DNA from: an uncultured bacterium
GTDB lineage: Bacteria; Margulisbacteria; Marinamargulisbacteria; GCA-2716485; GCA-002719695
Assembly (NCBI GenBank): GCA_963979105.1
Contig: CAXBWG010000001.1
Coordinates: forward strand, 1-33,392
Direction of reading: 5' to 3'
Length of the DNA: 33,392 nucleotides
The position numbers and the translations under genes were made by a program. Each line of letters opens with the position of its first letter. Positions within the stretch are counted from its first letter, which is position 1. The notes under the pieces were generated by a model, which was not told where the DNA came from, did no database searches, and saw nothing but the letters and a program-made list of their open reading frames with translations. Below are positions 7,001 through 30,183 of this stretch, piece by piece.

Positions 7001-8723
7001 AGCATTTAACCATCTTCATATTTTTATAGACCCAACTCCAGATGCAAAAATAAGCTGGGAAGAAAGAAACAGATTATTTAATTTACCAAAATCAACTTGG
7101 GAAGATTACAACAAAAAATTATTAAGCACTGGCGGAGGAATCTATAGTAGGTACTCTAAAAAAATAACCCTATCAAACGAAATAAAAAAATTATTAAATT
7201 TAGAACAAAACGAGCTAAACGGCTCAGAACTTATTCATGCCCTTTTACAATGTAAAGTTGAACTTCTTTGGTTTGGAGGAATAGGTACTTATATTAAATC
7301 AGAAAATCAATCACATTCATCCGTTGGAGACCTTGCCAATGACAGTGTTAGAATAAATGATTCTCAATGCAAAGCAAAAGTTATTGGAGAAGGTGCAAAT
7401 CTTGGGATAACCCAACAAGCCAGACTTAAACTAAGCGAAAATTCTATTCATTTAAATACAGATTTCATAGATAATTCAGCAGGAGTAAATATTTCTGACT
7501 ACGAAGTTAATTTAAAAATTTTTCTACAAAAACTTCTTCAGAAAAAGCACATAAAAACAACAAAAGATCGAAATAGTTTATTAAAAAAATCAACTAAAAA
7601 TGTGATTGAAAATGTTTTGAAAAACAATATTTATCAACACAAACTTCTTTCAATGGAAGAAATACGATCAAAAATATCGATTTCCCCATATACAAATTTA
7701 ATTACACATTTTATTAACGAAAAAAAACTTAACCCACAAACAGACATCATTCCATCACAGGAAAAATTTGAAGAACTCGATAAAAAAAAGATGTCACTAC
7801 CACGTCCTTTACTAGCCTTACTCCAATCACTAATTAAATTAGATATAAATGGTACGTTATTAGAAAAATTTAATTCAAAAGATCCTTTTTTAAATAATTT
7901 CTTTTATAATTACTTTCCAAAATCTGTGATTGAAAAATTCAAAAAAGAATTAAACAACCATCAACTTAAACATGAAATCATAATTACTGAATTAACAAAC
8001 TACATTATTAACAACGCAGGCGTATTATTCTTTAGATCTACTCAAGAAATTACTGGAAAATCGATAAAAGAAATTACCGAAACCTACCTAATTCTAGACA
8101 AAACATTAAATTACCAATCACACAGAAAGGAACTATTAAAACAACAAATTCCACTCTCAGAAAAATATAAACAGTTAATCAAATTAGAATCTCAATTAAA
8201 ATATATTATTATAGATGCCCTACTAATCCCAAACTCAAAATTCAATATAGAAAATTTTTCTAATATTCAAAAATTATATACAACATTTCTTTCTAACTTC
8301 AACCCCAATACACTGAGCAATACCACTATTGAATTAAATAGATTTTTTATCCCTTATTATACAATTCTAACTACCCTTAAAAAGCCCCATACTAAAACAA
8401 CTCTCAACTCAATTGAAAAAATCTATAGTTATTTTAGTTTCGATTTTATATTAATGGCATTAAATCAAACTATTCTAAACTCAAACTGGGAAGTTGAACA
8501 AATAAAATTATTATACAAAATTTTATCACAAAAAAAGATAACTATTATTAATAAAGTCTTAACTACTAAACCCAACAAAGACACTCTATCCTCAGATAAA
8601 ATCCAATCATTTTTCTCAACAGACTTAAACTCATTTAACAACCTAATTTTAGAGGTAAAATCTATAGAAACTGTTTCATTATCTGCATTAACTGTAATAA
8701 TTAATAAATTAAATTTATTATAA
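4008..8723 (+). CDS. gdhB: NAD-specific glutamate dehydrogenase, large (about 180 kDa) Bac_GDH type
   Basis: 1571 aa. The catalytic core carries VSRGGIRWSSRPNDYRSEVLGLAKTQRVKNVVIIPNGSKGGFV, VVAADKGTATFSD, GDMSGDVFGNGML and EGANLGITQQAR, as in the large NAD-GDH family. Confidence 0.9.
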   Translation: MPKKSTNNTLDYKNKLKNEILNLSKNNTLLTQFCSCYITSLNTKSLHKYTSETLFEFLKTQFNYLVTFFEKKENYLLDIKNTSHRSITVTIICPDVQYLIFTLENLFKQFNLTITRMNHPLVSVYKNQKKEITFIDLPKKDSKLFSCCSIECQFENSKLELNKLEQELKYRLNAALCISKDSNQMMKNLIFVQHDVSKTPTHFPEFQKEWIELLDWLTNENFSCFGYGEFLITKTGTSHLIKLNESESLGLLSKTYLNHSNSTLVSQIKNQIKNLMDYRSPFIFDSLKYKSPIKRFENLMRINLKIPTGPNKWIQYNFIGLLKRSSLLAKNTETPIIKLKIKTILERKQIWPGSHNYYQTIRLLNNVPKIELFKTPIENLQEIIENLLSITNPNDISFFKLKQIDKSKLFVMGVIPNSVFSNSNLIKIINYLEKEIPNSGIEYFVIPSEQFVRIHIYFDQEKTNEFNIDLNKIESTVIELIQPWEKRFHQILINNFGIKKSDTLYTKYVHSFPEHYKIRRSPRDAIIDVDYFESSTINKKTEFNLVPFKFKDSLLTGKANLLNIYHYEKIDLFQFIPIFQNLNIYFFDELTTRVGSINSIIGYIHAFRIKFIESSHYTPQFESFKDRLIHLLNAIFQNKLPNDPINGLISCTELNWKDIFILQGYRNYLLQLRPNYTKEKINTTILKHKHPIELIIKYFKTKFTYTNNHTPSKKQINQCLTLKEAFLDSLSSVSDIDEDYILKWIFNLIEHTLRTNYFKHELETSNLLSLKLDGEKIIAPLPKSFKEIFIFDPEVEGIHIRFGAVSRGGIRWSSRPNDYRSEVLGLAKTQRVKNVVIIPNGSKGGFVIKKKFEKSNTPTESKNQYEKFIEGLISLTDNVDNKNNIIKPEKTICYDTDDPYLVVAADKGTATFSDFANNISTTNNFWLDDAFASGGSAGFNHKELGITAKGAWECVKLHFLEIGKDINKTPFTCVGIGDMSGDVFGNGMLLSKQTKLIAAFNHLHIFIDPTPDAKISWEERNRLFNLPKSTWEDYNKKLLSTGGGIYSRYSKKITLSNEIKKLLNLEQNELNGSELIHALLQCKVELLWFGGIGTYIKSENQSHSSVGDLANDSVRINDSQCKAKVIGEGANLGITQQARLKLSENSIHLNTDFIDNSAGVNISDYEVNLKIFLQKLLQKKHIKTTKDRNSLLKKSTKNVIENVLKNNIYQHKLLSMEEIRSKISISPYTNLITHFINEKKLNPQTDIIPSQEKFEELDKKKMSLPRPLLALLQSLIKLDINGTLLEKFNSKDPFLNNFFYNYFPKSVIEKFKKELNNHQLKHEIIITELTNYIINNAGVLFFRSTQEITGKSIKEITETYLILDKTLNYQSHRKELLKQQIPLSEKYKQLIKLESQLKYIIIDALLIPNSKFNIENFSNIQKLYTTFLSNFNPNTLSNTTIELNRFFIPYYTILTTLKKPHTKTTLNSIEKIYSYFSFDFILMALNQTILNSNWEVEQIKLLYKILSQKKITIINKVLTTKPNKDTLSSDKIQSFFSTDLNSFNNLILEVKSIETVSLSALTVIINKLNLL

Positions 8724-12798: not shown

Positions 12799-14091
12799 AT
12801 GACTAATACATTAATATTTTTATCCTTTATTTTGTTATCTTCTTTTTTTTCTGGAGCAGAAACAGCATTCACTGCAATAAATAGAATAAAACTAAGATCT
12901 ATAATTGAAAAAAAAGAAAAAAAGACAACCTATTTAGAATTTCTGTTAAGATCTCCAAAAAAATTACTTACATGTATTTTAATTGGAAATAATCTTGCAA
13001 ACATAGCCGCAACTACGTTTGCAACAGCATTTTTCATAAACATATTTAAATCTGTAGGAATTCATAGCATTGCAACATCATTAACACTAATCACAATTAT
13101 AGTTACCTTTATTTTGTTAATTTTTGGAGAGATATCCCCAAAAACATTTGCAATGAAAAACCCAACAAAATGGGCTTTGCGAATTTCTCCAATAATTTAT
13201 TACATCTATATTGGATTATACCCTTTAGTATTACTATTTTATTCATTTTCAAAAATTATAAGCAAAATTTTAGGCATTAAATCAACTTCAAACTCACATT
13301 TAACAGAAGAGGAAATTAAACTGTTAATCCAACTTGGACAAGAAGATGGAATCTTAGAAAAAGAAGAACAAAAAATGCTACATGGCGTAATAAATGTTTT
13401 TGATAAAGTTGTAAGAGAAATTATGACACCAAGAACAGATATGATATGTATTGAAATAACAGATAATGTTTCAAATGTAATTAACATAATAACCACAAAA
13501 GGTCATTCAAGAATCCCAATATATGAAGACAAAATAGACAATATAATAGGGTTTATTTACGCAAAAGACTTATTAAATATAAACCCTTCAATTAAAACAC
13601 ATAATCTAAGAAGTTTTATGAGAGAAGCTATATTTATTCCAGAAACGAAATCAATAGAATCATTATTACAACAAATGAGAAAATCAAAATTTCATTTAGC
13701 TGTGGTAGTAGACGAACACGGAGGTGTATCCGGACTTGTAACAATGGAAGATATTATTGAGGAAATAGTAGGAGAAATACATGATGAATACGACAAAGAC
13801 AATGTATATATTAAACAAATTAATACCAATCATCTTATTATAAATGCCAAAACAAATTTAGATGAACTATCAAGTTATTTAAACTTTACATTCCCTAAAA
13901 AAGACGATTATGACACAGTTGCTGGCTTTATTTTATATGAATTAGGATCCTTTCCTAAAAAAAATCAAGTAATCAAATATGAACATTTTGAATTCATTAT
14001 AAAAGATATTCGGAATCGACGAATAATTGCATTTGATGTTAAAATCAATAAATCAACTGAAGAAGTCGATAATGCAAATGAAAATAAATAA
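12799..14091 (+). CDS. DUF21/CBS-pair/CorC_HlyC membrane protein (hemolysin-like TlyC/CorC family)
   Basis: N-terminal DUF21 TM region (FFSGAETAFTA), a CBS pair (REIMTPRTDM..., HLAVVVDEHGGVSGLVTMEDIIEEIVGEI) and a C-terminal transporter-associated domain. Start taken at ATG 12799; the TTG at 12763 lies inside dgkA. Confidence 0.85.
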   Translation: MTNTLIFLSFILLSSFFSGAETAFTAINRIKLRSIIEKKEKKTTYLEFLLRSPKKLLTCILIGNNLANIAATTFATAFFINIFKSVGIHSIATSLTLITIIVTFILLIFGEISPKTFAMKNPTKWALRISPIIYYIYIGLYPLVLLFYSFSKIISKILGIKSTSNSHLTEEEIKLLIQLGQEDGILEKEEQKMLHGVINVFDKVVREIMTPRTDMICIEITDNVSNVINIITTKGHSRIPIYEDKIDNIIGFIYAKDLLNINPSIKTHNLRSFMREAIFIPETKSIESLLQQMRKSKFHLAVVVDEHGGVSGLVTMEDIIEEIVGEIHDEYDKDNVYIKQINTNHLIINAKTNLDELSSYLNFTFPKKDDYDTVAGFILYELGSFPKKNQVIKYEHFEFIIKDIRNRRIIAFDVKINKSTEEVDNANENK

Positions 14092-16387
14092 ATTAAACAC
14101 CAAATTTTTAACAAAACTAAAATTAAATAAAAGTCCTCTAAACTATTTTAAATCTATACTAGTTAACCGTGGATTTGATAATTTTGTAATACTTTCAGAC
14201 TACGCCAATAGACTCTGGCCACACTGGATTCACAAGTATCTAGATCCCAATCAAAAAAACATGTCTTATGAAAATACAATATTAACAATAATTAATAACA
14301 AATTTAGAAACTGGACCTATTTAAAAGAAAAAAACACTAAGACAACAATAACTGTTGATCCTCATGGATTAATATTTATAGAAAACTCACCATATTCGAT
14401 TGATTTTTGGATAGCTGAAGAAGATAATTTTTATTTTTATGCAAAAAGTAAAAATGTAAAACAAAAATATCACCCGCAACATAACACTATAGAAACTAGT
14501 CACAGCTTTAATCAACTAAACATAGTAAGCTCTACATTTTTTAGATCATTACCTCAAAAACACAATATTTTATTTTGCGATAACAAAATCACAAACACCT
14601 CAAATACAAAAAAATCATTATCTTTTTTCATTTCAATCCGCCCCTATGACCTCGAAGGAGTAACCTCCTTAAAAAAAATTCAATATGTCCAATCTAATGC
14701 ATTTTTAATTAACTCTAAACTGAGCATATGCCTTGATAATAAACCCGATAATATTCTATGCCTCCCATTTTCACATGGGGATGTATCTCAGTTTCACAAC
14801 AAACTAGAGATGATTTTCCAGGCAACATGTAACCACAAAAAAGCATCAGGAGTAGCGCAATTCAATCTCAATCTAGACCCTGGGGAATCTAAAATAATTT
14901 CCTTTAAATCACCATTTACAAAAAACAAAATATCTAAATATTTATTTTCCAAAAAATATAAAATAGAAAATTTAAAATTAAAAATAAATAATTTAAAAAA
15001 GCTATCTTCATCTCAATCAATTATTGATTCTAGCGTATCAAAAACTGAAACTCAAATTAAAACACCAGACAAAAAGATTAACACCTTTTTAAAATCAATC
15101 TATGCACAACTATCTAGCTCATATAATTATACAGATATAAACACGGGTATATACTTTAATTATTTATATAATTCATCAGATTTCTTAAACTATATTATAT
15201 TGCTACATAAATTTGGGTATTCAAACAATGATTTAAACATAACATTAAATAATCTATATTTTAAAAAAGTATTAAAAGAATTAAAAAGTCAAAAATTCGC
15301 CTACGAAAAATTAGGTCAATGGTTTGATCAAGTATACTACCTATATAACTCAAAAATATTAACATTAACAAAAGAAAAACTTTTAATAATAAAAGACATA
15401 CTAAGTTACTGTATTGGAAACCTAGAAAATTTTAACACTATTAATACAAAAATTTTAAACAAAAGAAATTGCGAAAGAAAAAATAAAAAAAGAAATTATT
15501 TAATAGACAATTTATCTGTATTGCAAAGTATAAAAACATATAAAGAACTATTAAACCATTCATCTATTTTTTCAACAAAAAAGTTAAACAAAGAATTTGA
15601 GAAAACAAATCATGCAGAAATTGTTTTAACAAATGGAATTCAAGAATTTATTAAAACTACTACTAAAAAAACTCTCATAAAAGACCTAATTTCACCAAAC
15701 TTATCCCAAACAGTAACGCTAAACTCCATTGAATGCACACAGTATTTTACTAAACTATTTCCAACAAAAACAACATTAATTCAAAAAACTATAGAGGAAA
15801 TTAAAACTCAATATTTTCATAACGGTATAGTTTATTCAGGAATAAACCCCTCAGGATATCCATTACATAGTAATTTATCTTATGCAGATATACTGTATAA
15901 TTTAAATGATACCGAGTATTTTAATTTCTTAAATTCGTTGCTAAATCTTACAACAGATACATATACACTACCTAATGTAATTCATTTAACAACCAAATGT
16001 GGAAGCGAGGGAGACGGGCATAATATTTTAATTACAACATTACTGGCACTAAAGCTTATAAAATGTTTTATAGAAGAGAATCCAGCTAGCTTAGAACTAT
16101 TTAAACACACACCAAAAGAGTGGTTAGTGAATGAAAAATTATATATAACAAATATAAACACATCATTTGGCGAATTCTCATTCCAATTAACCCCGAAAGA
16201 AAAGACAGTAGAATTGAATTTTAATCTTTCAGAAACATCTCCCTGCGCATTTATTATTATTCATGTCCCAAATGAATTCAAAAAATTCTCAATTTCAGAA
16301 AATATTTTTGAAATTTCAAAACCCGATATAAAAATACCAATAAACTCAAAAAAGGTTATATTTCATAAATCAAATGAAAATAAATGA
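14072..16387 (+). CDS. large hypothetical protein (about 770 aa), no recognisable family
   Basis: A long uninterrupted ORF in an AT-rich genome, translationally linked to both neighbours. It overlaps the corC-like stop and the downstream methyltransferase start. Candidate starts are ATG 14072 and 14078. There is no signal peptide, no TM helix and no motif I can name. Confidence 0.6.
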   Translation: MQMKINKLNTKFLTKLKLNKSPLNYFKSILVNRGFDNFVILSDYANRLWPHWIHKYLDPNQKNMSYENTILTIINNKFRNWTYLKEKNTKTTITVDPHGLIFIENSPYSIDFWIAEEDNFYFYAKSKNVKQKYHPQHNTIETSHSFNQLNIVSSTFFRSLPQKHNILFCDNKITNTSNTKKSLSFFISIRPYDLEGVTSLKKIQYVQSNAFLINSKLSICLDNKPDNILCLPFSHGDVSQFHNKLEMIFQATCNHKKASGVAQFNLNLDPGESKIISFKSPFTKNKISKYLFSKKYKIENLKLKINNLKKLSSSQSIIDSSVSKTETQIKTPDKKINTFLKSIYAQLSSSYNYTDINTGIYFNYLYNSSDFLNYIILLHKFGYSNNDLNITLNNLYFKKVLKELKSQKFAYEKLGQWFDQVYYLYNSKILTLTKEKLLIIKDILSYCIGNLENFNTINTKILNKRNCERKNKKRNYLIDNLSVLQSIKTYKELLNHSSIFSTKKLNKEFEKTNHAEIVLTNGIQEFIKTTTKKTLIKDLISPNLSQTVTLNSIECTQYFTKLFPTKTTLIQKTIEEIKTQYFHNGIVYSGINPSGYPLHSNLSYADILYNLNDTEYFNFLNSLLNLTTDTYTLPNVIHLTTKCGSEGDGHNILITTLLALKLIKCFIEENPASLELFKHTPKEWLVNEKLYITNINTSFGEFSFQLTPKEKTVELNFNLSETSPCAFIIIHVPNEFKKFSISENIFEISKPDIKIPINSKKVIFHKSNENK

Positions 16388-18590: not shown

Positions 18591-18824
18591 ATGATAAATA
18601 TATTTATAGGATCATTCATTATTTGCTCGGTATGCTTTATTTTTATTGGTGTAGGAGTTTTATTTTTAGGGAAAACAGCTAAGCATGAAGCTTGTGGACG
18701 AGTACCAGATCTTGAAGATCAAAATGAATGTGCATCACAAAAAGCAGGTTTGTGTCCATTTGAAGATAAAACCGGCGCTTTAAAAATACAAAGAAAAACA
18801 AGACTTACCTATCCTAAGATTTAA
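18591..18824 (+). CDS. nqrM: small Cys-containing single-TM protein, NqrM-like (DUF539) Nqr maturation factor candidate
   Basis: 77 aa with one N-terminal TM helix, followed by a basic stretch and spaced cysteines (ACGR...NECASQ...GLCPFED). Size, topology and proximity to nqr-apbE resemble NqrM. The identification rests on pattern only. Confidence 0.5.
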   Translation: MINIFIGSFIICSVCFIFIGVGVLFLGKTAKHEACGRVPDLEDQNECASQKAGLCPFEDKTGALKIQRKTRLTYPKI

Positions 18825-20632
18825 AAAAAATAATTAAAAGTTTTAAACACAATAATAGAAGAGATATATGCAAATACGGTATAAAATACAAACTGTATAC
18901 TTGCAAAAGCTATACTATTTGTCTCTTTTTTAGAAATTGCTAAAGTAGACATACATTGCAATGCAATCATAAAAAACACAATAAGACTAACAATTGAAGG
19001 CAACTCAAACAATAATTTATTTGAACCATCAAAAGTGGCAAAACTTAAGGTTTCTAACAAATTAGATGAAGTAGCAGAAATACTAAAAATAACAACTAAC
19101 GTAGATACAAACACCTCTCTAGCCGCAAAAGATAACAAAATTGCAACACCCACTCGCCAGTCTAGGCCCATTGGCAAAAAAACAGGTTCAATAAATTTTC
19201 CTATCATAATAATAAAGGAATTTTCTGGAGATGGAAAAAAGGATATTATCCATAATATAATAGATAAAATAAATATAATTGGTCCTGCATTAAAAATAAA
19301 TGAAAAGGTTTGCCTAGTCATTGAATACCAAATATTTAATAAATTTGGATATCTCCACTCAGGAAGCTCTAAATTAAATTTTTTATTTGTTTTACCTGGA
19401 ATAAACCGCCCTACTATAATAGCAACAAAGGCGCTAAGAATTAAACTTATAAGATAAATTAAGGTTAAAGCTAAAGCACTTTTAAAAGCGCTATTAGGAA
19501 ATAACAACGTAAGTAATAAACCATAAACAGGAAGTCTAGCTGAGCATTGCATTAATGGAATAATGAAACAGCAAATTAGTTTAATTTTTTCTTGTTGAAT
19601 ATTTCGTGTCGATAGCATAGCCGGTATTGCGCACGCAAAACCAGACAATAAAGGAACAAAACAACGACCATTTAAACCAATAAAGGATAAAGGTCTATCA
19701 ATGATTATCGCACCTCTAGCTAAATATCCAGAAGATTCCATCAATCCAATCCCAAAAAACAAAAATGCAATTTGAGGAACAAAAATCACAACAGATCCAA
19801 TAGCGTTTATGAGTCCATCCGAAACAAACTTAGCCAAAATAGTGTTAGAGAATATATAAGGAACCGAATTATTAAGCTGTGTAAAAAGAAAGTCAATTAA
19901 ATTAGTAAACGGAGCAGCTAAAGAAAATATACTATAAAAAAATAAAAGCATTATCAGAATAAAAAAAAAGGGCCCCAGATATGGGTTTAAAAACACATTA
20001 TCTAAATCAAAGCGATTATCATCTACACTGGTATATGAAATCTCATTCAAAATAACTTCAATTCTGGAATAATAAGATTTAAAAGAGTCCGTAATATTGG
20101 AATTTAATTGATACTCTGTAAACGAATAATCTTGAAAAAAATGATGAATGTTTTCAAAAGTAGAGTTTGACGAATCTAATTTAAAAACAGGTACATTTAA
20201 CTGTGATTTTAATTTCTCAAAATTAAATTTAACCTTACTTTTATTTGATTTTGAAAACATAGTCAACATAACAACAACAGGAAATCCTTTATCTATTAAC
20301 TGAAGAGTAGTTAAAAGATGCCTACTTGGTTGGTTAACATCCACAAACGAAATAACGAGATTAGGATTTTTAGATGACTGCCCGACTAATGAATTTAAAT
20401 TCTCCAAAGTTTTAACTGAAATTTTTTCATCATCTGATTTTGGTTTTAAAGAATACAAACCAGGGGTATCTAAAAATATTAAATTTTCATTAAAAATCGA
20501 TTTTGCAATACATATTTCAACCGTAGATCCGGGATAATTAACTACTTTAGATTTCTTACCTGTAATTTGATTAAAAAATGTTGTTTTTCCAGAATTAGGA
20601 GGCCCAACCAACGCAATATAGTTTATAGACAT
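18821..20632 (-). CDS. feoB: ferrous iron transporter FeoB
   Basis: N-terminal G-domain (ALVGPPNSGKTTFFN, DTPGLYS) followed by a polytopic membrane domain with gate-like motifs; sits directly after feoA. Confidence 0.9.
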   Translation of the reverse strand: MSINYIALVGPPNSGKTTFFNQITGKKSKVVNYPGSTVEICIAKSIFNENLIFLDTPGLYSLKPKSDDEKISVKTLENLNSLVGQSSKNPNLVISFVDVNQPSRHLLTTLQLIDKGFPVVVMLTMFSKSNKSKVKFNFEKLKSQLNVPVFKLDSSNSTFENIHHFFQDYSFTEYQLNSNITDSFKSYYSRIEVILNEISYTSVDDNRFDLDNVFLNPYLGPFFFILIMLLFFYSIFSLAAPFTNLIDFLFTQLNNSVPYIFSNTILAKFVSDGLINAIGSVVIFVPQIAFLFFGIGLMESSGYLARGAIIIDRPLSFIGLNGRCFVPLLSGFACAIPAMLSTRNIQQEKIKLICCFIIPLMQCSARLPVYGLLLTLLFPNSAFKSALALTLIYLISLILSAFVAIIVGRFIPGKTNKKFNLELPEWRYPNLLNIWYSMTRQTFSFIFNAGPIIFILSIILWIISFFPSPENSFIIMIGKFIEPVFLPMGLDWRVGVAILLSFAAREVFVSTLVVIFSISATSSNLLETLSFATFDGSNKLLFELPSIVSLIVFFMIALQCMSTLAISKKETNSIAFASIQFVFYTVFAYISSIIVFKTFNYFF

Positions 20633-20641
20633 AAAAATAAA

Positions 20642-20860
20642 CTATACAACTAATATCTGTTCTGCTTCAAATTTCCTAATAGCAACTCTTGCTCCCCTCA
20701 GCATAACAGTGATAGGTCCTGAAAAAATTGATTCTGAAATTATTGTAGCTTTAGTCCCGGGAACAAATCCTAAAATTTCTAATTCTTCTTCGTGTTCTTT
20801 ATTTACTAAAGATTCAATTGTAATTGTTTTCTTTTTTTTAACTTCACTTAATTTATACAT
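20642..20860 (-). CDS. feoA: FeoA (SH3-like ferrous iron transport accessory protein)
   Basis: 72 aa with LEILGFVPGTKATIIS...GPITVMLRGARVAIRKFEAEQI, typical of the FeoA fold; 9 nt upstream of feoB. Confidence 0.8.
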   Translation of the reverse strand: MYKLSEVKKKKTITIESLVNKEHEEELEILGFVPGTKATIISESIFSGPITVMLRGARVAIRKFEAEQILVV

Positions 20861-20879
20861 TTTAATTCCCTAAATAAGA

Positions 20880-21569
20880 CTAAGTCTCATTATCTTTAAA
20901 TAGTTTATTTTTGTCAATCATAAAACGATATTTTTTAAAAAAAATAACAATTCCAGTCAAAATAATTACCAATAAAAAAACACTTACAATAGTATTAATT
21001 TTTTTAAAAAATACATGTGGTAAATATCCAGTATGTAATGACCGAATAAATTCCCAAAAATCCCAAGGGGACCTATTAATAAAATGCTGAAACCAAGCAT
21101 TATCTTTATATTCATACCCCCCCTGATTGGTAGTAATAAATAACTGATTCTGATTTGAGCTAACAGAATATAATTCATATGAATCAGGGATAAGTATTCT
21201 TTCAAAAGAATAGGTATTAGGATCCATTTTAAACAACAATCCATTTGATAACCCAATCCAATATGCCTGTTTAAAAAACACAATATCTATAATATATTTA
21301 GAAGAAAATGGAATAGAAATCTCTTTAAAACGTTTTAAATCAGAAGATAAAAACAAAGAAAAACGAGTAACTATAAAATAATTATCTTGAAAAACAAATG
21401 TCATTTTCGGATATTGTTGGTAAGGATCATCAATTATTTCATTTGATTTAAAATTATCTGGGTTATTTAAAATAATTCCAGTTAAAACCAAAGATAAAAT
21501 AAAAATAGCTGATATCACTCCAAGCCAAGAATGAATTAACGTAAAATATTTAGTCTTAATAAAACGCAT
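20880..21569 (-). CDS. PepSY_TM-like two-TM membrane protein with a periplasmic loop (VciB/FoxB-like candidate ferric reductase component)
   Basis: TM1 carries LIHSWLGVISAIFILSLVLTGIIL (His13, codon 21531-21533). The pre-TM2 segment carries FIRSLHTGYLPH (His179, codon 21033-21035) followed by TIVSVFLLVIILTGIVIFF. These H-x-W-x-G and L-H-x-G signatures are those of PepSY-associated TM helices. Confidence 0.6.
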   Translation of the reverse strand: MRFIKTKYFTLIHSWLGVISAIFILSLVLTGIILNNPDNFKSNEIIDDPYQQYPKMTFVFQDNYFIVTRFSLFLSSDLKRFKEISIPFSSKYIIDIVFFKQAYWIGLSNGLLFKMDPNTYSFERILIPDSYELYSVSSNQNQLFITTNQGGYEYKDNAWFQHFINRSPWDFWEFIRSLHTGYLPHVFFKKINTIVSVFLLVIILTGIVIFFKKYRFMIDKNKLFKDNET

Positions 21570-21578
21570 TTTACACCT

Positions 21579-22127
21579 TTATATTAAATATCCAATAATA
21601 ACTAACGCACGTTTAACCCCACTTGCAATAGACCATGTTGAAATTGTAGCCCCAGAAATACCCATAATATCTTTATCTACAACTAATCCATCAGATTTTG
21701 TTTTATTAATAAACTGTTTTAAAAATCGTTTTTTTCGTATTTCACTGCCGATTTTTTCTCGATAAACCATCACAACAACTTGTTTTACTTTTAAATCTGA
21801 AGTAATCCCCGTCATAAAAGTAATAGGCTTATACTTACCTTTTTCATCCAACACTAAACAATACCCAATTAAATTGTCTTTTGTACTGACTTTATAAAAA
21901 ACCAATTTAGAATTAGTAATAAAAAAACCAAGCTTTTTTTCGATTTCTTGTTTAGTTTTAGCATCTAAAGTAATTTCCTTTTTTAAAAAAGAATCAGTAT
22001 TAGGAAAAATTTTATGTATAGCCTCATTTGCACTATAATAGACTTTACTATAATAAATACCTTCGTCACTATAACTCTGTTGAGATAAGAGAAACAAAAA
22101 AATAATTACTAAAAACCGAATCCTCAT
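21579..22127 (-). CDS. secreted FMN_bind-domain protein with an ApbE flavinylation motif
   Basis: Sec signal MRIRFLVIIFLFLLSQQSYS. The C-terminal DKDIMGISGATISTWSI matches the D-x-x-SGAT flavinylation site also seen in NqrC (VDGISGATITS) in this window. The S-G-A-T codons were verified at 21645-21656. Confidence 0.75.
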   Translation of the reverse strand: MRIRFLVIIFLFLLSQQSYSDEGIYYSKVYYSANEAIHKIFPNTDSFLKKEITLDAKTKQEIEKKLGFFITNSKLVFYKVSTKDNLIGYCLVLDEKGKYKPITFMTGITSDLKVKQVVVMVYREKIGSEIRKKRFLKQFINKTKSDGLVVDKDIMGISGATISTWSIASGVKRALVIIGYLI

Positions 22128-22132
22128 TAAAA

Positions 22133-23335
22133 TTAAAACCCAACGGCTACAGAAGAAATAAATTGTGTTTTATAACCTGTTTCTGAAACTTGGCGATAAT
22201 CATCTTGAGAAATTTCAAATTTATAAACAACAGATTCGGTAGGTCTGAAATTAAAGCCTAAAGTATATCGAACTGTAGTATTATTTAATACAGTATCTGT
22301 GTTCACATATCCTAATCTAGAAAATAAAGTTATAACAGGTTTAGATAGCGAAGGCAGTTTTTTTCGTAAATACCCCTGTAGTACATGAGATCTAAACTCT
22401 AAGTAGCCACCTTCCATTTGAGCAGGAATGGAACTATATCCATCATTATCAATAAAAGCTTTAGCAAATTCTAATAGTGTTTCATATCTACCATTTTTAT
22501 AAAATAGATCTATACCTGTTAAAAGTAAATTATTCTTACCAGCATCATCATAATTACCAGAATATAAACTCATACCCAAATTAAGACCTAAACTTGGAGA
22601 AACCTCTACTCTAGCAGCTATTGCTTTTGATCCATTATTATCTTGTTTATAATTAGGACGAGATTTTCTAATTCCTTCTGATAGTGATATGTCATCAGCC
22701 GTAGATCCAGAAGTATCGGCTAACCCATTAAATACATATAGCTCATAACCCAACTCTAAATCTTGTATATCTTTCTGACCATAAAACCCAACTCCCGTGT
22801 CCATCCATGTTGAAGGTACAATATATGAAGAATAAATGGGCCGCTGAGTAGCCTCTCTTACATCGGAATCATGTAACACATTTACTCGTCCAAAGGGAAC
22901 TAAAATTATGCCAACTCGATTTACAAATAACTCAGATACACGATAATCTAACCAAGCTTGCTCAATTTTAATTTCGCCTTTTTGAACACCACTTGCAGAA
23001 TTTGTAACATAACCTCCATATTCAAACTCAATTTCAGAGTTAATTAAAATATCTTCATGCACCTGCGAAGACACCTCAAGAATAAATCGATGGGCTTTAA
23101 AAGTCGAACTTGAATCTGACTTAGACGAAGTATAATCAGAATCTAAAACATTAACATATTCAGTATCAAAATAACCCCCAATAGATCTTTGCCCAATCCT
23201 ATCAAATGCAGTTATAGAACGCCCTCCAGGCCCATTTCTATCTAAAATAGGATTAGAAAAAATATAAGAATTAACAGTAGTTAACATAAGAATAATACCC
23301 ACTAATAATAACTTTTTAAAAACAACATTACACAT
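22133..23335 (-). CDS. outer-membrane beta-barrel porin-like protein
   Basis: N-terminal signal peptide, Gly/Tyr/Asp-rich alternating beta-strand pattern, and a C-terminal ...SSVAVGF ending in Phe (the classical OMP terminus). GAGGT RBS at 23341-23345. Confidence 0.6.
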   Translation of the reverse strand: MCNVVFKKLLLVGIILMLTTVNSYIFSNPILDRNGPGGRSITAFDRIGQRSIGGYFDTEYVNVLDSDYTSSKSDSSSTFKAHRFILEVSSQVHEDILINSEIEFEYGGYVTNSASGVQKGEIKIEQAWLDYRVSELFVNRVGIILVPFGRVNVLHDSDVREATQRPIYSSYIVPSTWMDTGVGFYGQKDIQDLELGYELYVFNGLADTSGSTADDISLSEGIRKSRPNYKQDNNGSKAIAARVEVSPSLGLNLGMSLYSGNYDDAGKNNLLLTGIDLFYKNGRYETLLEFAKAFIDNDGYSSIPAQMEGGYLEFRSHVLQGYLRKKLPSLSKPVITLFSRLGYVNTDTVLNNTTVRYTLGFNFRPTESVVYKFEISQDDYRQVSETGYKTQFISSVAVGF

Positions 23336-23448: not shown

Positions 23449-24489
23449 TTAAAATTCAATTTGTGAAGACGAAACATATTTTGAAAATCCAGAGGAGCTA
23501 AACAATTTTAGGCTCGCATCTTTTTGTCGTACAACAAACAAACATTCAACATCTTTATAAGATTCAACAATACTTAACCCTCTATTTAACCCTATTACAA
23601 AAAGTGAAGTAGCAAGCGCATCTGAAAGCATGCAGTTAGGTGCAATTACAGTAACAGACGCAATATTATTTGATATCGGCTTACCAATTCGCGGATCAAA
23701 TAAATGAGAATAAATAACATTATCCTTTTCAAAATAGTTCTTGTAATCTCCACTTGTTGCAATAGAGTTGTTTTTTAAATTCAACGTTAACAACAATTCA
23801 TTATCAGATTTAAAGTATTGGGGATTAAGTACTCCTATATTCCAACCAGAATCTTTTTTGGAAGAACCAACACGAACCTCACCACCTATTTCTACCATGT
23901 ATCTATCTACACCAATTTCAGTAAGAATCTCAACAATTTGATCAACCCCATACCCTTTTACAATAGATGACAAATTCAAACTAAACTTAGAATGATTCTT
24001 TTTTAATTTAGTATCTTTAATAACTAATTTGTTAAAGCCTACATAATCAAATACTTCTTTAACTTGATCATCAGTTGGAATTTCATAATATATTGTATTA
24101 TTACCAAATCCCCATAAATCAAATAATGGTTTCATTGATGGATCATAAGCACCTTTACTTAATTCATATATATCATTAGCCGTTTTCAAAACACCAACCA
24201 ATTCAGGAGACACATCAACAAAATCAGTACTTTTAAGGGTATTAAATTTACTTAATTCCGAATGATCATTCCATGTAGAAAATGTCATATTAATACTATG
24301 AAGCTTTTGTGTAATTTGTTTTTCTAAAGATTTTTTAGATCTCCATGAATCAACATACACTTTAATCGTATAAGTTGTTCCCATAGTCTCACCACGAAAC
24401 ACTAAAAACTTATCTTGAAAAACCCAAATAACAAATACTGGAATAAAAAAAAGAAACAAAAATAAAAATAACCGCTGTTTTAGAGTCAT
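23449..24489 (-). CDS. apbE: FAD:protein FMN transferase (flavin transferase ApbE)
   Basis: N-terminal membrane anchor or signal, plus motifs YDPSMKPL, KGYGVDQ, EIGGEV, ATSGDYKNYF, SDALATSLF. It immediately follows nqrF, as in canonical nqr loci. Confidence 0.9.
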   Translation of the reverse strand: MTLKQRLFLFLFLFFIPVFVIWVFQDKFLVFRGETMGTTYTIKVYVDSWRSKKSLEKQITQKLHSINMTFSTWNDHSELSKFNTLKSTDFVDVSPELVGVLKTANDIYELSKGAYDPSMKPLFDLWGFGNNTIYYEIPTDDQVKEVFDYVGFNKLVIKDTKLKKNHSKFSLNLSSIVKGYGVDQIVEILTEIGVDRYMVEIGGEVRVGSSKKDSGWNIGVLNPQYFKSDNELLLTLNLKNNSIATSGDYKNYFEKDNVIYSHLFDPRIGKPISNNIASVTVIAPNCMLSDALATSLFVIGLNRGLSIVESYKDVECLFVVRQKDASLKLFSSSGFSKYVSSSQIEF

Positions 24490-24504: not shown

Positions 24505-25722
24505 CTATCCAAAATCATCAAAACGAATCATTTCTCTATCAACGCCAATATTATCAAGCATTTCCATCATGCATTTAAGCATAATCGGGGGTCCACACAA
24601 ATAATATTCAATTTCTGTAGGATCTTCATGCTTTGATAAATAATTATCATAAAGAGCATTATGAATAAATCCAGTTAACCCCTTCCAGTTATCTCCTTTT
24701 AAAGGATCAGATAACGCAACATGATAATCAAAGTTATCTAGTTTATCTTCTAACGTTTTAAACTCATCATCATAAAACATTTCCCTTTTAGATCGTGCCC
24801 CATACCAAAAAGTTGTTTTACGTTTTGTATTTAGTGTTTTAAGCTGATCAAAAATATGACTTCTCATTGGAGCCATTCCAGCACCACCCCCAACAAAACA
24901 CATTTCTCTATCTGTTTCCTGAACAAAAAACTCACCAAAAGGTCCGCTAACATCTATTTTATCTCCAGGTTTTAAATCAAAAATAAAAGAAGACCCTATT
25001 CCTGGAGGGAAATTAGTTCCAGGAGGAGATGTAGCGATTCTTACATTTAACATAATCATACCTTTTTCAGCAGGATAGTTTGCCATTGAATAAGCTCGAA
25101 ATAACTCTGTATCATTACTAGCTTGAGTATCCCATAATTTAAACTTATCCCAGTCTTCTTTATACTCATCTTCAACTATAAAACTACTAAACTGAGTCGT
25201 AAACGGAGGAATATAAAGTTGAATATATCCACCTGCTTTAAAATTCATATCTAACCCAGTAGGAAGCTTTAATCGAAGCTCTTTAATAAATGTTGCTACA
25301 TTTTCATTTGACACAACTTCACATTCAAACTTTTTAATAGAAAAAATTTCATCTGGAACTTTAATTTTAACATCATTTCTTATTTTCACCTGACACCCTA
25401 AACGAACACAAGACTTTCTTTCTGCAATAGATAAATGAGGTAATTCTGTCGGTAAAACATCCCCCCCACCAGCTAAAACTTCTACCTTACACATTGCACA
25501 TGTTCCCCCTCCGCCACATGCAGAAGGTAAAAATATTCCTGTATCAGATAAAGCAGATAACAGATTAGTTCCAGAACTAACTGTTGGACTTTTTTCTTCA
25601 TCTCCATTAATTAAAACAAGACAATCACTAGATCCAATAATATTTTTTTCTACAAAATACAACATCGTTACTAAACTCATAATAATAAATAGAAAAACAC
25701 CAATACTAATAATATAAACCAT
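24505..25722 (-). CDS. nqrF: Na+-translocating NADH:quinone oxidoreductase subunit F
   Basis: N-terminal TM, 2Fe-2S ferredoxin motif CGGGGTCAMCKV, FAD/NADH domain RAYSMANYP and GGGAGMAP. Start set at ATG 25722, preceded by GGGAG; the track's TTG at 25755 overlaps nqrE. Confidence 0.92.
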   Translation of the reverse strand: MVYIISIGVFLFIIMSLVTMLYFVEKNIIGSSDCLVLINGDEEKSPTVSSGTNLLSALSDTGIFLPSACGGGGTCAMCKVEVLAGGGDVLPTELPHLSIAERKSCVRLGCQVKIRNDVKIKVPDEIFSIKKFECEVVSNENVATFIKELRLKLPTGLDMNFKAGGYIQLYIPPFTTQFSSFIVEDEYKEDWDKFKLWDTQASNDTELFRAYSMANYPAEKGMIMLNVRIATSPPGTNFPPGIGSSFIFDLKPGDKIDVSGPFGEFFVQETDREMCFVGGGAGMAPMRSHIFDQLKTLNTKRKTTFWYGARSKREMFYDDEFKTLEDKLDNFDYHVALSDPLKGDNWKGLTGFIHNALYDNYLSKHEDPTEIEYYLCGPPIMLKCMMEMLDNIGVDREMIRFDDFG

Positions 25723-25732
25723 GAATTTCTCC

Positions 25733-26347
25733 CTATGTAAGCTTAATACCCGCAAACGACATAAACGCCATTGCGATTAATCCAGTAACTATCATGTTAA
25801 TTGCAAACCCATCTAAACCTTTGGGCAAATTTGCATATTTTAATTTTTGAAGAACTGCTGAAAATGCAACTATTGCTAAGAACCAGCCAATACCCGAGCT
25901 AAAACCAAAAACCACAGCCTCTGAAAACGTATAATTTCGTTGTTCCATAAATAAAGACGTTCCTAAAATAGCACAATTTACTGCAATCAAAGGTAAAAAT
26001 ATTCCAAGAGATGTATATAAACCTGGCGAAAATTTTTCCATTAACATTTCAACTAATTGAACTTGAGACGCAATAACAGCAATAAACGAGATAAACACTA
26101 GAAAACTTAAATCTAATTCAGGAAACCCCATCCAAGCCAATGCTCCTGGCTTTAGAAAAAAATGATTAATAGCCCAATTAACAGGTGTTGTAATTGTTAA
26201 AACAAAAATAACAGCTAGCCCTAAACCCGTAGCCGTTTTAATATTTTTAGCACATCCTAAAAAAGAACACATTCCCAAAAATAATGCTAATAATATATTA
26301 TTTATAAATATTGACTCTAAACCTAAACTTACTAAATGCGCAACCAT
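25733..26347 (-). CDS. nqrE: Na+-NQR subunit E
   Basis: NqrE/RnfA family polytopic protein, 204 aa, with conserved cysteines in LGMCSFLGC and AVNCAILGTS. Confidence 0.9.
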   Translation of the reverse strand: MVAHLVSLGLESIFINNILLALFLGMCSFLGCAKNIKTATGLGLAVIFVLTITTPVNWAINHFFLKPGALAWMGFPELDLSFLVFISFIAVIASQVQLVEMLMEKFSPGLYTSLGIFLPLIAVNCAILGTSLFMEQRNYTFSEAVVFGFSSGIGWFLAIVAFSAVLQKLKYANLPKGLDGFAINMIVTGLIAMAFMSFAGIKLT

Positions 26348-26359
26348 TACCCTTACTCC

Positions 26360-26980
26360 TTAAGCCTTACTTGTAACCAAATTTTGAATCCAAACTAATA
26401 CCCCTATTAAAATAAACGCACCTGGTGCTAACAACATTAACCCCATGTCAACATAGCCTAAATCATACACAAATTGCGGAATAACTTTTACGCCAAATAA
26501 AGCACCTGAGCCTAACAGCTCTCTAAAAAACCCAACTAAAACTAAAATATAGCCATAACCTAATCCATTACCAATACCATCCCACATAGACAACCAAGGT
26601 CCATTTGCTAATGCAAAGGCTTCTGCACGTCCCATAATAATACAATTCGTAATAATCAACCCAACAAAAACACTAAGTTGTTTACTCACATCAAACATAA
26701 ATGCTTTTAAAAATTGATCTGCTAAAATAACCAACGTAGAAATAACAACTAATTCTACAATAATTCGAATATTTTTTGGAATTGCATTTCTAAGAATAGA
26801 AATCGTAATATTAGAAAAAGTTAATACAAACGTCATTGCAAGAACCATAACTATAGACGGTATAATTTGAGTTGTAACAGCCAAAGATGAACAAATTCCT
26901 AAAATAGCTACAGAAATTGGATTTGCCTCTATAATTGGTTTTTTAAACGTTTTAAATGCATCTGTGTTAAATATATTCAT
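26360..26980 (-). CDS. nqrD: Na+-NQR subunit D
   Basis: NqrD/RnfE family, 206 aa, with conserved cysteines in ILGICSSLAV and ITNCIIMGRAEAF. Confidence 0.9.
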   Translation of the reverse strand: MNIFNTDAFKTFKKPIIEANPISVAILGICSSLAVTTQIIPSIVMVLAMTFVLTFSNITISILRNAIPKNIRIIVELVVISTLVILADQFLKAFMFDVSKQLSVFVGLIITNCIIMGRAEAFALANGPWLSMWDGIGNGLGYGYILVLVGFFRELLGSGALFGVKVIPQFVYDLGYVDMGLMLLAPGAFILIGVLVWIQNLVTSKA

Positions 26981-27663
26981 GAACGTCTCCTTAAATGCTT
27001 TGAAAATAACTCATAAGAATTAAGATCTTGCTTTAAATACTTTTCAACACCTTTACTAGTTATTGTAGCCCCACTAATTCCATCTACAAAATTACTATAC
27101 CGATCCTTAGAAATAGTTGAATCCTTAAGTTTCCCCTTGACTACACTAATAGAAACAAAGGCTCCTGACATATCTGTGATTTTTTTTCCTATAAATTGCT
27201 TTTGAAACCAGTCTTTTTCTACTTCGGCACCTAAGCCGGGTGTTTCTTTATGATCGTAAACCGTTAATCCAACTACAGTTTCACCATCGCCTTTAATAGC
27301 AATATAGCCATAAACCCAACTCCATAAACCATAAGCTTTAAATGGAACAACATACATATCTATTGAACGTTTACTACCAACTACAAAAACTGGTAATTTT
27401 GTAACCTCATCAGTTAACCTTCCTGAATCGGAAATATAAAATTCTTTAACATTAGTTAAATATAAGTCTTCAATTTCATTTACAGTATATTTTTTAGTTG
27501 AAACAAGCAAACTTAATGATTTTAAAATATTTTTTTGGCGATCAACCAACATATTTTTCTCTTGTTTTGATTTTAAACCAACCGCAGTTGCAGTAAGTGC
27601 TATACTACAAAACAAGCACATTAATAAAGCAAATAAAAATGTTTTTTGTGTATCAGATAACAT
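26977..27663 (-). CDS. nqrC: Na+-NQR subunit C
   Basis: Single N-terminal TM and an FMN_bind domain with flavinylation site VDGISGATITSKG (S-G-A-T codons at 27064-27075). Confidence 0.9.
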   Translation of the reverse strand: MLSDTQKTFLFALLMCLFCSIALTATAVGLKSKQEKNMLVDRQKNILKSLSLLVSTKKYTVNEIEDLYLTNVKEFYISDSGRLTDEVTKLPVFVVGSKRSIDMYVVPFKAYGLWSWVYGYIAIKGDGETVVGLTVYDHKETPGLGAEVEKDWFQKQFIGKKITDMSGAFVSISVVKGKLKDSTISKDRYSNFVDGISGATITSKGVEKYLKQDLNSYELFSKHLRRRS

Positions 27664-28837
27664 GTGGAATCCTCTTTTTTGTTTTAATTTCCATCACAAC
27701 ATGATCTATTAATGGTGCGAATACATTCATTAATAAAATAGCAAGCATCCATCCTTCTGGATATGCTGGATTTATAACACGAATAATAATCCCCATCATT
27801 CCAATTAATACCCCATAAATAAATCGTGAAATTTCAAGAGAAGGGGAAGAAACAGGATCTGTTGCCATAAAAACAGAACCAAATGCAAAACTCCCTAAAG
27901 ATAATTGCCATAAGGGATTCAATCCAAGAAAAGCGCCCCCTTCTGGCCCTGCTACTAAATTTAAAATCAACGTCATAGAAGTGGCCCCAATTACACATCC
28001 GAGCATGGTTCTCCAACTACCTACCTTAGTTAATATTAAAACAACAGCTCCAAATAATGCACAAATAACTGACGTTTCCCCAATACTTCCTGGAATAAAT
28101 CCCAAAAATGCATCTTGCAAACTAAATCCAGCATCTATCAACCTATCTGCTGCGTTTTCTCCAGTTGGTGTAAGAGCCGCCACCCCTAATGCCGTAGCGC
28201 CACTCCAGCCATCTACAATTTGATCTTTTGCAACAAGAACCTTCGTCCATACCTCACCGCTAATATAAGCAGGGTATGTAAAAAATACAAACGCTCTAGC
28301 TGTAAGTGCTGGGTTTAAAAAATTTCGTCCAGACCCCCCAAACACTTCTTTTCCAATAATTACACCAAAAGCAATCCCAACACCCGCTTGCCATAATGGC
28401 AATGTTGCAGGCAATGTTAACGGATATAAAATCCCAGTAACTAAAAAACCTTCATTAATTTCATGCCCTCTAAAAATAGCAAATAACAATTCTATAATTC
28501 CACCAACTGCATAAGACACTATAATTAAAGGTAAAACTAACTTTAAACCTGTCATTACTACTGGAAGAAGCTCCAAACTTAGCCCCGCTGCTTGATGAGT
28601 TTGTAAACCAGAATTATATATACCAAATAAAATACATGGCCCTAATGCCGCTAAAACTATAGACATATATCGCTTTGTATCTAAAGAATCCCTTACATGC
28701 ACTTTCGATTTTGTAGTTTCTTTTGTACTAAATAAAAATGAATCCCCAGCTTCAAAAAGCGGATATAATTTTTCTAATTTTCCACCTTTTTTAAATAATT
28801 TTTCTTGACTATCTAAAAACTTCGTTAAAAACTTCAT
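27653..28837 (-). CDS. nqrB: Na+-NQR subunit B
   Basis: NqrB/RnfD family polytopic protein with flavinylation site VDGWSGATALG (S-G-A-T codons at 28193-28204). Confidence 0.9.
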   Translation of the reverse strand: MKFLTKFLDSQEKLFKKGGKLEKLYPLFEAGDSFLFSTKETTKSKVHVRDSLDTKRYMSIVLAALGPCILFGIYNSGLQTHQAAGLSLELLPVVMTGLKLVLPLIIVSYAVGGIIELLFAIFRGHEINEGFLVTGILYPLTLPATLPLWQAGVGIAFGVIIGKEVFGGSGRNFLNPALTARAFVFFTYPAYISGEVWTKVLVAKDQIVDGWSGATALGVAALTPTGENAADRLIDAGFSLQDAFLGFIPGSIGETSVICALFGAVVLILTKVGSWRTMLGCVIGATSMTLILNLVAGPEGGAFLGLNPLWQLSLGSFAFGSVFMATDPVSSPSLEISRFIYGVLIGMMGIIIRVINPAYPEGWMLAILLMNVFAPLIDHVVMEIKTKKRIPHVI

Positions 28838-30183
28838 GCTGTTACTTCCTTGTATAATTTTGTTTTTGCAGCTCTAAAAATTTCATCTAATTCTATTTTC
28901 GATGGACATACATACGTATATAAACCAGTATCAACAATATCTAACAAGCCATATTTAACAGCTGTTTCTATATCGTCAACATTTAAACTTTTCATAATCA
29001 TCTGAGGAGCAGAATCTACCTGACATACTTTTGCGCACACTCCACAAGAGATACACGCCCGATGCCCTCCATTCGTAGACGACGTCATAGAAAATTTTTG
29101 TTTTTTATTTATTGCAGACAAATACGTATTTCCAAAAGTAGGCTTATCGTACCCCCCTCTAAAAAACGTTAACAATTCTCGCTCTTGTCCTTCCCGAATC
29201 AAATTTATTGCATAATCGTTATACCCTAAACCCGATTCAAGACTCACTTTATCTCCAGTTAAAACACCCCCTGCAATAATTCGAACAGGATCTGAATTCA
29301 CAAATTCCTTAGATAAAAAGTTTAAACTTATCGCTTCACGTGTTTTTATATATCGTGGCTTTTTAGCTTGAGTCCCTGCTAACACAATTAATCGTTCTAT
29401 TGGATAGTTTCCAGACTTAAATAATTGACCAATCCGAATAATATCTAAAGAACGTATTCCCCAAGAAGCATTTTCTTCTTGAGTCTTTTTATTATGATAA
29501 AGAAAAACACCCGGGTTATTTGCAGGATAGTCCCCTTCTAACCTATGAGTTGCAAGTAAATTTAATTTTGATTGATCAAACTTATTTTTTTCAGATACTC
29601 CAACATAAACTGCTGAACTTAATTTTTTAATTATCTCTAAACCAAACACAAAATCATCATAATATTCTTTTAAAAAAACAGCTGATTCAGGCATAAACGG
29701 CTCATCATAATCAACAGTTACATATATAGAAGGTGCAATGTCATCTTGTTTAGGGGCTGCCTCAAATGGATATTGTGTAATTAAATTCCATAAACCGCCA
29801 TCAATAATACGACTAACAACATCTTCACGAGACAATTTAGTTAATTGATCATCAGTTACAGGAGAAAACAATTCCTCTACCTTTTCAGCTGAATCTTTTT
29901 GTATAACAACCTTTTCCACCACGCGCCTATGTCCATAAACGATTTCTTTTACTACGCCACTAACTGGAGATAAAAATTTTAAATGTGGTTGTTTTTTATC
30001 GATTAATAAAAGCGAGCCAATAGCCACTGCTTGATTTTCTTTAACAACTAATTTTGATTTAAAATTTTTAATTCGCACAGGATTGATTATAAATTCATTT
30101 GAATGAATAACCTCTTCTATAATAGTAGAAGGTTCTCCTTTTAAATTTAAATTGTATGTATTTTTAATTTTTAATTGCTTCAT
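28834..30183 (-). CDS. nqrA: Na+-NQR subunit A (with an atypical ferredoxin-like cysteine motif)
   Basis: 449 aa with an NqrA-like N-terminus (MKQLKIKNTYNLNLKGEPS). It is first in the nqrABCDEF order and overlaps nqrB by 4 nt. AGGA RBS upstream. Confidence 0.88.
   Translation of the reverse strand: MKQLKIKNTYNLNLKGEPSTIIEEVIHSNEFIINPVRIKNFKSKLVVKENQAVAIGSLLLIDKKQPHLKFLSPVSGVVKEIVYGHRRVVEKVVIQKDSAEKVEELFSPVTDDQLTKLSREDVVSRIIDGGLWNLITQYPFEAAPKQDDIAPSIYVTVDYDEPFMPESAVFLKEYYDDFVFGLEIIKKLSSAVYVGVSEKNKFDQSKLNLLATHRLEGDYPANNPGVFLYHNKKTQEENASWGIRSLDIIRIGQLFKSGNYPIERLIVLAGTQAKKPRYIKTREAISLNFLSKEFVNSDPVRIIAGGVLTGDKVSLESGLGYNDYAINLIREGQERELLTFFRGGYDKPTFGNTYLSAINKKQKFSMTSSTNGGHRACISCGVCAKVCQVDSAPQMIMKSLNVDDIETAVKYGLLDIVDTGLYTYVCPSKIELDEIFRAAKTKLYKEVTA

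Follow-up and report, generated by a model that had tools for sequence, protein, structure and literature searches.

In papers up to 2025, the NqrA subunit of Nqr is described as cofactor-free (PMC4014512, PMC9588780, PMC11889175, PMC12174285), and reviews up to the same year list it without a cofactor and without an assigned function. The region of the Rnf subunit RnfC that aligns to the C-terminus of NqrA carries two [4Fe-4S] clusters (PMC9588780). In the V. cholerae complex, the NqrA segment R330-N379 intertwines with the N-terminus of NqrB (PMC9325719). Our literature search found no paper describing an iron-sulfur NqrA, and the passages searched in PMC6349859, which reports Nqr in Marinamargulisbacteria, make no mention of the motif that is the subject of this study. 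Likewise, a one-cluster derivative of an iron-sulfur NqrA, which is what the gene analyzed here is predicted to encode, was found described in no paper.

The window is the whole stretch of 33,392 nucleotides analyzed here, which stems from an uncultured marine bacterium of the Marinamargulisbacteria (Margulisbacteria; contig CAXBWG010000001.1). It contains a complete nqrABCDEF-apbE operon on the minus strand, in which every standard cofactor motif is in place. The first gene, nqrA (28834-30183), codes for a protein of 449 amino acids with the Pfam domains NQRA_N, NQRA_2nd, and NQRA_SLBB (PF05896, 73 bits; PF24836, 100 bits; PF11973, 39.7 bits; all above the cut-off), which represent an N-terminal barrel-sandwich, a second alpha/beta domain, and an SLBB domain. 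It is followed by nqrB (27653-28837; NF003756, 478 bits, above the cut-off), whose product has an SGAT flavinylation motif with T215, nqrC (26977-27663; TIGR01938, 184.5 bits, above the cut-off; SGAT motif with T200), nqrD (26360-26980; NF006777, 284.7 bits), encoding C30 and C113 for the membrane [2Fe-2S] cluster, nqrE (25733-26347; TIGR01940, 281.9 bits; C27 and C125), and nqrF (24505-25755; TIGR01941, 587.5 bits versus a cut-off of 295), which encodes the NADH/FAD/[2Fe-2S] input subunit with C80, C86, C89, and C121. The apbE gene (23449-24489) for a flavin transferase matched NF007774 with an E value of 2.9e-59, below the equivalog cut-off.

NqrA models rank first for the window protein among the NCBIfam profiles. 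It narrowly missed the cut-off of the equivalog model TIGR01936 (317.8 bits, cut-off 321.05) and also stayed below that of NF003761 (385.3 bits, cut-off 450), which is consistent with a divergent branch of NqrA. The AlphaFold2 model (pLDDT 92, falling to 72-77 in the stretches 370-379 and 420-429) has a TM score of 0.90 to V. cholerae NqrA (7xk3_A) and of 0.70-0.73 to RnfC. A Pfam search did not find PF01512 in the window NqrA, and the glycine-rich FMN/NADH loop of RnfC, GMGGATFP in 7zc6_C, aligns to LWNLITQYPF. NqrF and not RnfB takes the last position among the subunit genes, and the rnfC profile TIGR01945 was matched nowhere in the window genome (1.57 Mb, 79% complete) except inside nqrA. 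The gene thus encodes a genuine NqrA of an Nqr and not a component of an Rnf.

The window NqrA contains exactly five cysteines, C377, C380, C383, C387, and C426, all of which occupy ferredoxin ligand positions. The initial annotation had noted a CxxCxxCxxxC signature at residues 377-387 and a Cys-Pro at residues 426-427, and the codons confirm both. Motif I, C377-x2-C380-x2-C383-x3-C387 (29023-29055, minus strand), is intact and reads TGT (29055-29053), TGT (29046-29044), TGC (29037-29035), and TGT (29025-29023), followed by CAG for Q388 instead of a proline codon; the distal pair reads TGT (28908-28906) and CCA (28905-28903). By our own arithmetic, scattering five cysteines randomly over 449 positions yields the CxxCxxCxxxC pattern with an expectation of about 1e-6, so the pattern is not due to chance. 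The annotation had further related the motif to RnfC, and it is indeed a true remnant of the ferredoxin domain of that protein. Residues 372-445 (28849-29070, minus strand) form a C-terminal ferredoxin-like domain that is homologous to the 2x[4Fe-4S] domain of RnfC and matches positions 360-433 of TIGR01945 with an E value of 1.4e-24. In the HMMER alignment, residues 376-443 pair without gaps with residues 364-431 of C. tetanomorphum RnfC (7zc6_C), and the spacing from the first to the eighth ligand position is 49 residues in both proteins. C377, C380, C383, and C426 are thereby paired with C365, C368, C371, and C414 of 7zc6_C. Pfam Fer4 models matched residues 376-390 weakly (E 0.003-0.5, below the cut-off).

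Ligand columns C-I to C-VIII were mapped against RnfC and against NqrA proteins with eight cysteines. The five cysteines of the window protein fall into columns I-IV and VIII, and I416, T419, and Y422 (codons ATT, ACT, and TAT) correspond to C-V, C-VI, and C-VII of a decayed motif II (28903-28938, minus strand), of which C426-P427 is kept. Two-cluster ferredoxins ligate one cluster through the first three cysteines of motif I together with the last cysteine of motif II, and the other one through the reciprocal set. According to this rule, C377, C380, C383, and C426, the predicted fourth ligand, represent a complete set for one cluster, here termed cluster A. This agrees with the initial annotation, which had counted the ligands for at least one [4Fe-4S] cluster, and the pattern found is that of single-cluster [4Fe-4S] ferredoxins, CxxCxxC plus a remote Cys-Pro, in the same register as in the ferredoxin domain of RnfC. 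As the three cysteines of motif II are replaced by I416, T419, and Y422, the second cluster, cluster B, would be gone and C387 left without partners. Of the five cysteines whose convergence the initial annotation had proposed to examine, only four belong to one ligand set, and C387 is, judged by its register, the orphan ligand of the lost cluster B. In alignments with 8a1u and 7xk3, the residues of V. cholerae NqrA opposite C377, C380, C383, and C387 are M, I, Y, and M. The motif is hence missing there, as the annotation had stated, but two distal cysteines are kept (CTFVCPGK) rather than the single one that had been assumed.

The idea that such a motif is unusual for NqrA did not withstand a wider survey. 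Among 333 NqrA sequences scored at the eight ligand columns of a joint alignment, a sample biased towards relatives of the query, both sites were present in 231, neither in 86 (two of these being truncated sequences), only the cluster A site in 19, and only the cluster B site in 9. All eight cysteines are kept in the 231 sequences down to about 30% identity, and this version is the commonest state in the sample and occurs in hundreds of species. Both complete motifs were also found in most of 120 homologues, including proteins from Marinamargulisbacteria, Desulfobacterales, and Thermodesulfobacteriota. When a single genome of each species was scanned with a pattern that is biased towards this type of NqrA, at least 567 genomes turned out to encode a relative carrying it; 78 of the best 80 had both motifs, and nqrB-F lay downstream in nearly all cases in which the contig was long enough. 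Among the 150 best cluster representatives at 50% identity, eight-cysteine and cofactor-free forms were about equal in number. To judge from these alignments, the ferredoxin signature is real and common in NqrA. The five-cysteine form is uncommon (19 of 333 sequences) and was found only in the phylum of the window.

The 15 sequences of the five-cysteine clade are 50-100% identical to one another, with 30% of the alignment columns unchanged, and every one of them retains all five cysteines and P427. The former ligand columns of motif II vary in the same sequences, with I, T, or F at C-V, T or S at C-VI, and Y or C at C-VII, and the one member that still has C-VII shows a stepwise decay. Position 388 is Q in five, S in two, and P in eight of the sequences. 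In cofactor-free NqrA, the C-I to C-III positions are hydrophobic or aromatic and never Cys, indicating that the fold does not need cysteines there, and C-VIII, often together with C-VII, persists, so that C426 alone says little. Taken together, the conservation pattern favors selection on a putative metal site.

Both states occur side by side in the family of the window, with eight cysteines in three genera (g2, g3, and g5) and five cysteines in two (g1, which includes the window, and g4). The eight-cysteine relatives of the same family are about 46-51% identical to the window NqrA. The NqrA of Candidatus Marinamargulisbacteria SCGC AG-343-D04 is present as an identical copy in a genome of the GTDB family of the window, and that of SCGC AAA071-K20 is encoded by a genome of the same order. 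Among 146 species genomes of the phylum, NqrA was found in 31 and RnfC in 71, and only one genome (G057) has both. The two proteins are almost mutually exclusive in the phylum; RnfC occurs in no genome of the window's order and in most of the other lineages.

In a FastTree phylogeny of 345 sequences rooted with RnfC, the eight-cysteine state extends along the backbone and the window clade is nested within it. A second tree was calculated with IQ-TREE (LG+C20+F+G4, 100 sequences) with the ferredoxin columns left out, so that the trait itself cannot shape the topology. Here, the window clade had an SH-aLRT support of 98, and the same value was obtained for the clade around it, which consists of nine sequences with eight cysteines and ten with five. 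This larger clade lies in a clade of 60 sequences (SH-aLRT 100) that is separate from the clade holding all cofactor-free and all B-only forms (SH-aLRT 98). A tree constrained to unite all reduced forms was 374 log-likelihood units worse, and a common origin of these forms was thus rejected by the AU test (p 3.3e-5); the group had been named after the first tree was seen. The IQ-TREE topology implies at least three origins of the A-only state, all of them in the phylum of the window. In this phylum, cluster B was lost and cluster A never. Both trees indicate that cluster loss in NqrA was repeated and took place in different orders. B-only forms diverge at the root of the cofactor-free clade or close to it, and the Vibrio-type lineage therefore appears to have lost cluster A first. 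In the window lineage, it is cluster B that was lost, secondarily and independently of the loss in the Vibrio-type lineage. The window NqrA probably descends from an NqrA with both RnfC-type [4Fe-4S] clusters, motif II having decayed after the family of the window had arisen.

Partial decay of motif II was also observed in another family of the same order (genome G021, locus L089, LDYVDAGLCTYVCPSKI), where C-V is replaced by Tyr and C-VI by Ala and C-VII is kept; cluster B was thus lost a second time in the order, independently of the window clade. The reciprocal B-only NqrA was found in Planctomycetota and others, among them the cultured strain Kolteria novifilia Pan216 (L075, 7001-8356) and the sequences P0165, P0168, P0093, P0256, P0174, P0096, and P0097. 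In these proteins motif I is absent or interrupted (in Kolteria, C-II is the one cysteine replaced, by Ser), and motif II and C-IV are intact. A different arrangement is present in bacterium UBP8_UBA817 (L016, 6983-10435), in which nqrA is of the eight-cysteine type and has behind it only apbE and a short gene for an NqrB/RnfD-like protein (336 amino acids) without the usual SGAT flavin site in its middle, before a fur-family gene begins; nqrC and nqrE were not seen downstream in this locus. Genome G038, which belongs to the class of the window, encodes an NqrA with an identical C-terminal stretch, and nqrD and nqrF were not found anywhere in this genome, which is 84% complete. These two cases may represent a two-subunit module of NqrA and an NqrB-like protein without the remaining pump.

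Directly downstream of apbE, positions 18821-23335 of the minus strand of the window encode a porin-like protein, a small FMN_bind protein, a PepSY_TM-like protein, and FeoB, and an iron-uptake operon thus adjoins an Nqr that is apparently in the course of shedding an iron-sulfur cluster. On the plus strand, the window also contains the gene of a large-type bacterial NAD-specific glutamate dehydrogenase of 1571 amino acids (4008-8723; PF05088, 705 bits) and, amid housekeeping genes, an open reading frame of 786 amino acids (14027-16387) that matched no Pfam family at an E value of 1e-5. A SufB fragment in the window genome points to genes for iron-sulfur cluster assembly. The oxidase families PF00115 and PF01654 were not found in this genome, which is no evidence of their absence, since it is 79% complete and a haem-copper oxidase (COX1) is encoded in all seven other genomes of the family. 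As same-family relatives with a haem-copper oxidase keep both clusters, lifestyle alone does not account for the cluster loss.

By homology to V. cholerae, electrons would pass from NADH to NqrF and via NqrD/E and NqrC to the FMN of NqrB and from there to riboflavin and the quinone, with NqrA capping NqrB on the cytoplasmic side. We consider it probable that the window NqrA still binds one [4Fe-4S] cluster that has a structural or auxiliary role off this main path. The cluster would be held by C377, C380, C383, and C426 in the C-terminal domain of NqrA, and I416, T419, and Y422 presumably fill the former cluster B pocket. Most likely, it would act as a structural keystone for the C-terminal domain, the part of NqrA that clamps this subunit to NqrB, and in the alignment motif I begins right where the segment equivalent to V. 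cholerae R330-N379 ends. At most, the cluster might in addition act as a redox spectator or buffer near the riboflavin of NqrB. Because NqrA has neither a flavin nor an NADH site, the cluster would lack an onward partner within NqrA and would lie off the NADH-FAD-2Fe2S-FMN-FMN-riboflavin-quinone path. The invariant orphan C387 counts against this explanation, as a one-cluster model does not account for it. Furthermore, clusters were lost repeatedly in NqrA and are thus dispensable, so that the remaining site may be a relic that will be lost as well. Should the organism be aerobic, we would also expect an exposed cluster to be at risk from oxygen.

The initial annotation had considered an extra electron entry, exit, or regulatory site, and such a site may exist. 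It is unlikely, in our judgment, that the retained cluster is a working redox centre that exchanges electrons with the NqrB riboflavin like the proximal cluster of RnfC. In that case the pump would have a second cytoplasmic port, serving a ferredoxin, a flavodoxin, or some other acceptor, or else a sensor of redox state or oxygen that tunes its activity. Such a role could fit the geometry of Rnf, in which the riboflavin of RnfD is 11.7 Å from the nearer RnfC cluster (PMC9588780), provided that cluster A corresponds to the nearer one, and the position of motif I at the end of the segment that is intertwined with the NqrB N-terminus in V. cholerae (PMC9325719). The retention of eight cysteines over the wide range of identity described above argues for more than inertia, and the exclusive loss of cluster B in the window's phylum points in the same direction. 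However, no flavin or NADH site is left in NqrA and no partner gene was identified, and the existence of both reciprocal one-cluster forms, A only here and B only in Planctomycetota and others, indicates that neither cluster is universally needed. Moreover, the potentials of ferredoxin-type clusters usually lie far below those at the riboflavin/quinone end of Nqr, and a forward flow into the cluster would consequently be uphill. Distinctly improbable is the most far-reaching version of this idea, according to which a live redox centre is wired to the NqrB riboflavin, Nqr has a second electron port or a redox or oxygen sensor both here and in the eight-cysteine lineages, and the "cofactor-free NqrA" is one derived branch only.

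We likewise doubt that no cluster is bound at all and that the five cysteines are inherited relics, which possibly bind Zn or nothing and are conserved for packing in a domain nearing the cofactor-free state. The cofactor-free NqrA of V. cholerae folds the same domain without clusters, as the TM score of 0.90 illustrates, C-VIII and C-VII persist in many cofactor-free forms without a cluster, the proline after C387 is already gone in the subgroup of the window, and the Fer4 matches remain below threshold. Against this reading, C-I to C-III are invariant at only 50% identity, although the cysteines of motif II are replaced by varying residues in the same lineage, and the hydrophobic or aromatic residues at the motif I positions of every cofactor-free form show that packing does not require Cys.

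The suggestion of the initial annotation that this NqrA is an intermediate on the path from Rnf to the Vibrio-type Nqr was ruled out by the trees and the AU test, which place it on a side branch where the other cluster was lost secondarily inside the eight-cysteine clade. A misannotated RnfC and an assembly or frameshift artefact could also be ruled out, the former because NqrF is present and the TIGR01945 score is 86.5 bits versus a cut-off of 245.95, the latter because the same pattern of five cysteines occurs in independent Logan, ENA, NCBI, and Tara assemblies (P0002-P0011) and in the species genomes G017 and G018.

With one predicted cluster site kept and the other lost, the window NqrA represents a halfway stage of cofactor loss, reached in a lineage other than that of the textbook enzyme. 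Many NqrA sequences keep the cluster sites of Rnf, contrary to the descriptions of the subunit as cofactor-free, and the window adds a form with exactly one of them. There is thus a natural series with two clusters, either single cluster, or none, which could show what the clusters do, which of them faces the riboflavin, and what purpose NqrA serves. That clusters were lost more than once and in different orders constrains scenarios of how Nqr arose from Rnf. The value of our computational result is that it makes the question of clusters in NqrA testable; we regard its interest as moderate and as residing mainly in the series that is completed by the window form.

In comparison with V. cholerae NqrA (7XK3, 8A1U, 4U9O), the window protein shares the three N-terminal domains, the fold, 29% sequence identity, the position of its gene at the start of nqrABCDEF, and the lack of a NuoF-type FMN/NADH loop. 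It differs in having four cysteines at motif I and the distal Cys-Pro, whereas the V. cholerae protein is free of cofactors in all solved structures. With RnfC (7ZC6, 9ERI, 8AHX) it has in common the C-terminal ferredoxin domain, which aligns without gaps and has motif I and the final Cys-Pro in register. RnfC, however, contains two complete CxxCxxCxxxCP motifs for two clusters as well as FMN and an NADH site, and its partner is RnfB, whereas the window NqrA offers a single ligand set, lacks an FMN/NADH loop, and has NqrF in place of RnfB. The eight-cysteine NqrA proteins of Marinamargulisbacteria, Desulfobacterales, Planctomycetota, and others have the same architecture and operon and keep both CxxCxxCxxxCP motifs, whereas the window clade is without C-V, C-VI, and C-VII. 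A parallel outside these complexes is provided by the single-cluster [4Fe-4S] ferredoxins of Bacillus thermoproteolyticus, Thermotoga maritima, and Pyrococcus furiosus, which derive from two-cluster ones. They show the CxxCxxC...CP pattern, have lost the second site, and still contain a leftover cysteine from it. In contrast to these free soluble electron carriers, the module in the window is the C-terminal domain of a subunit of a membrane complex and has no evident redox partner.
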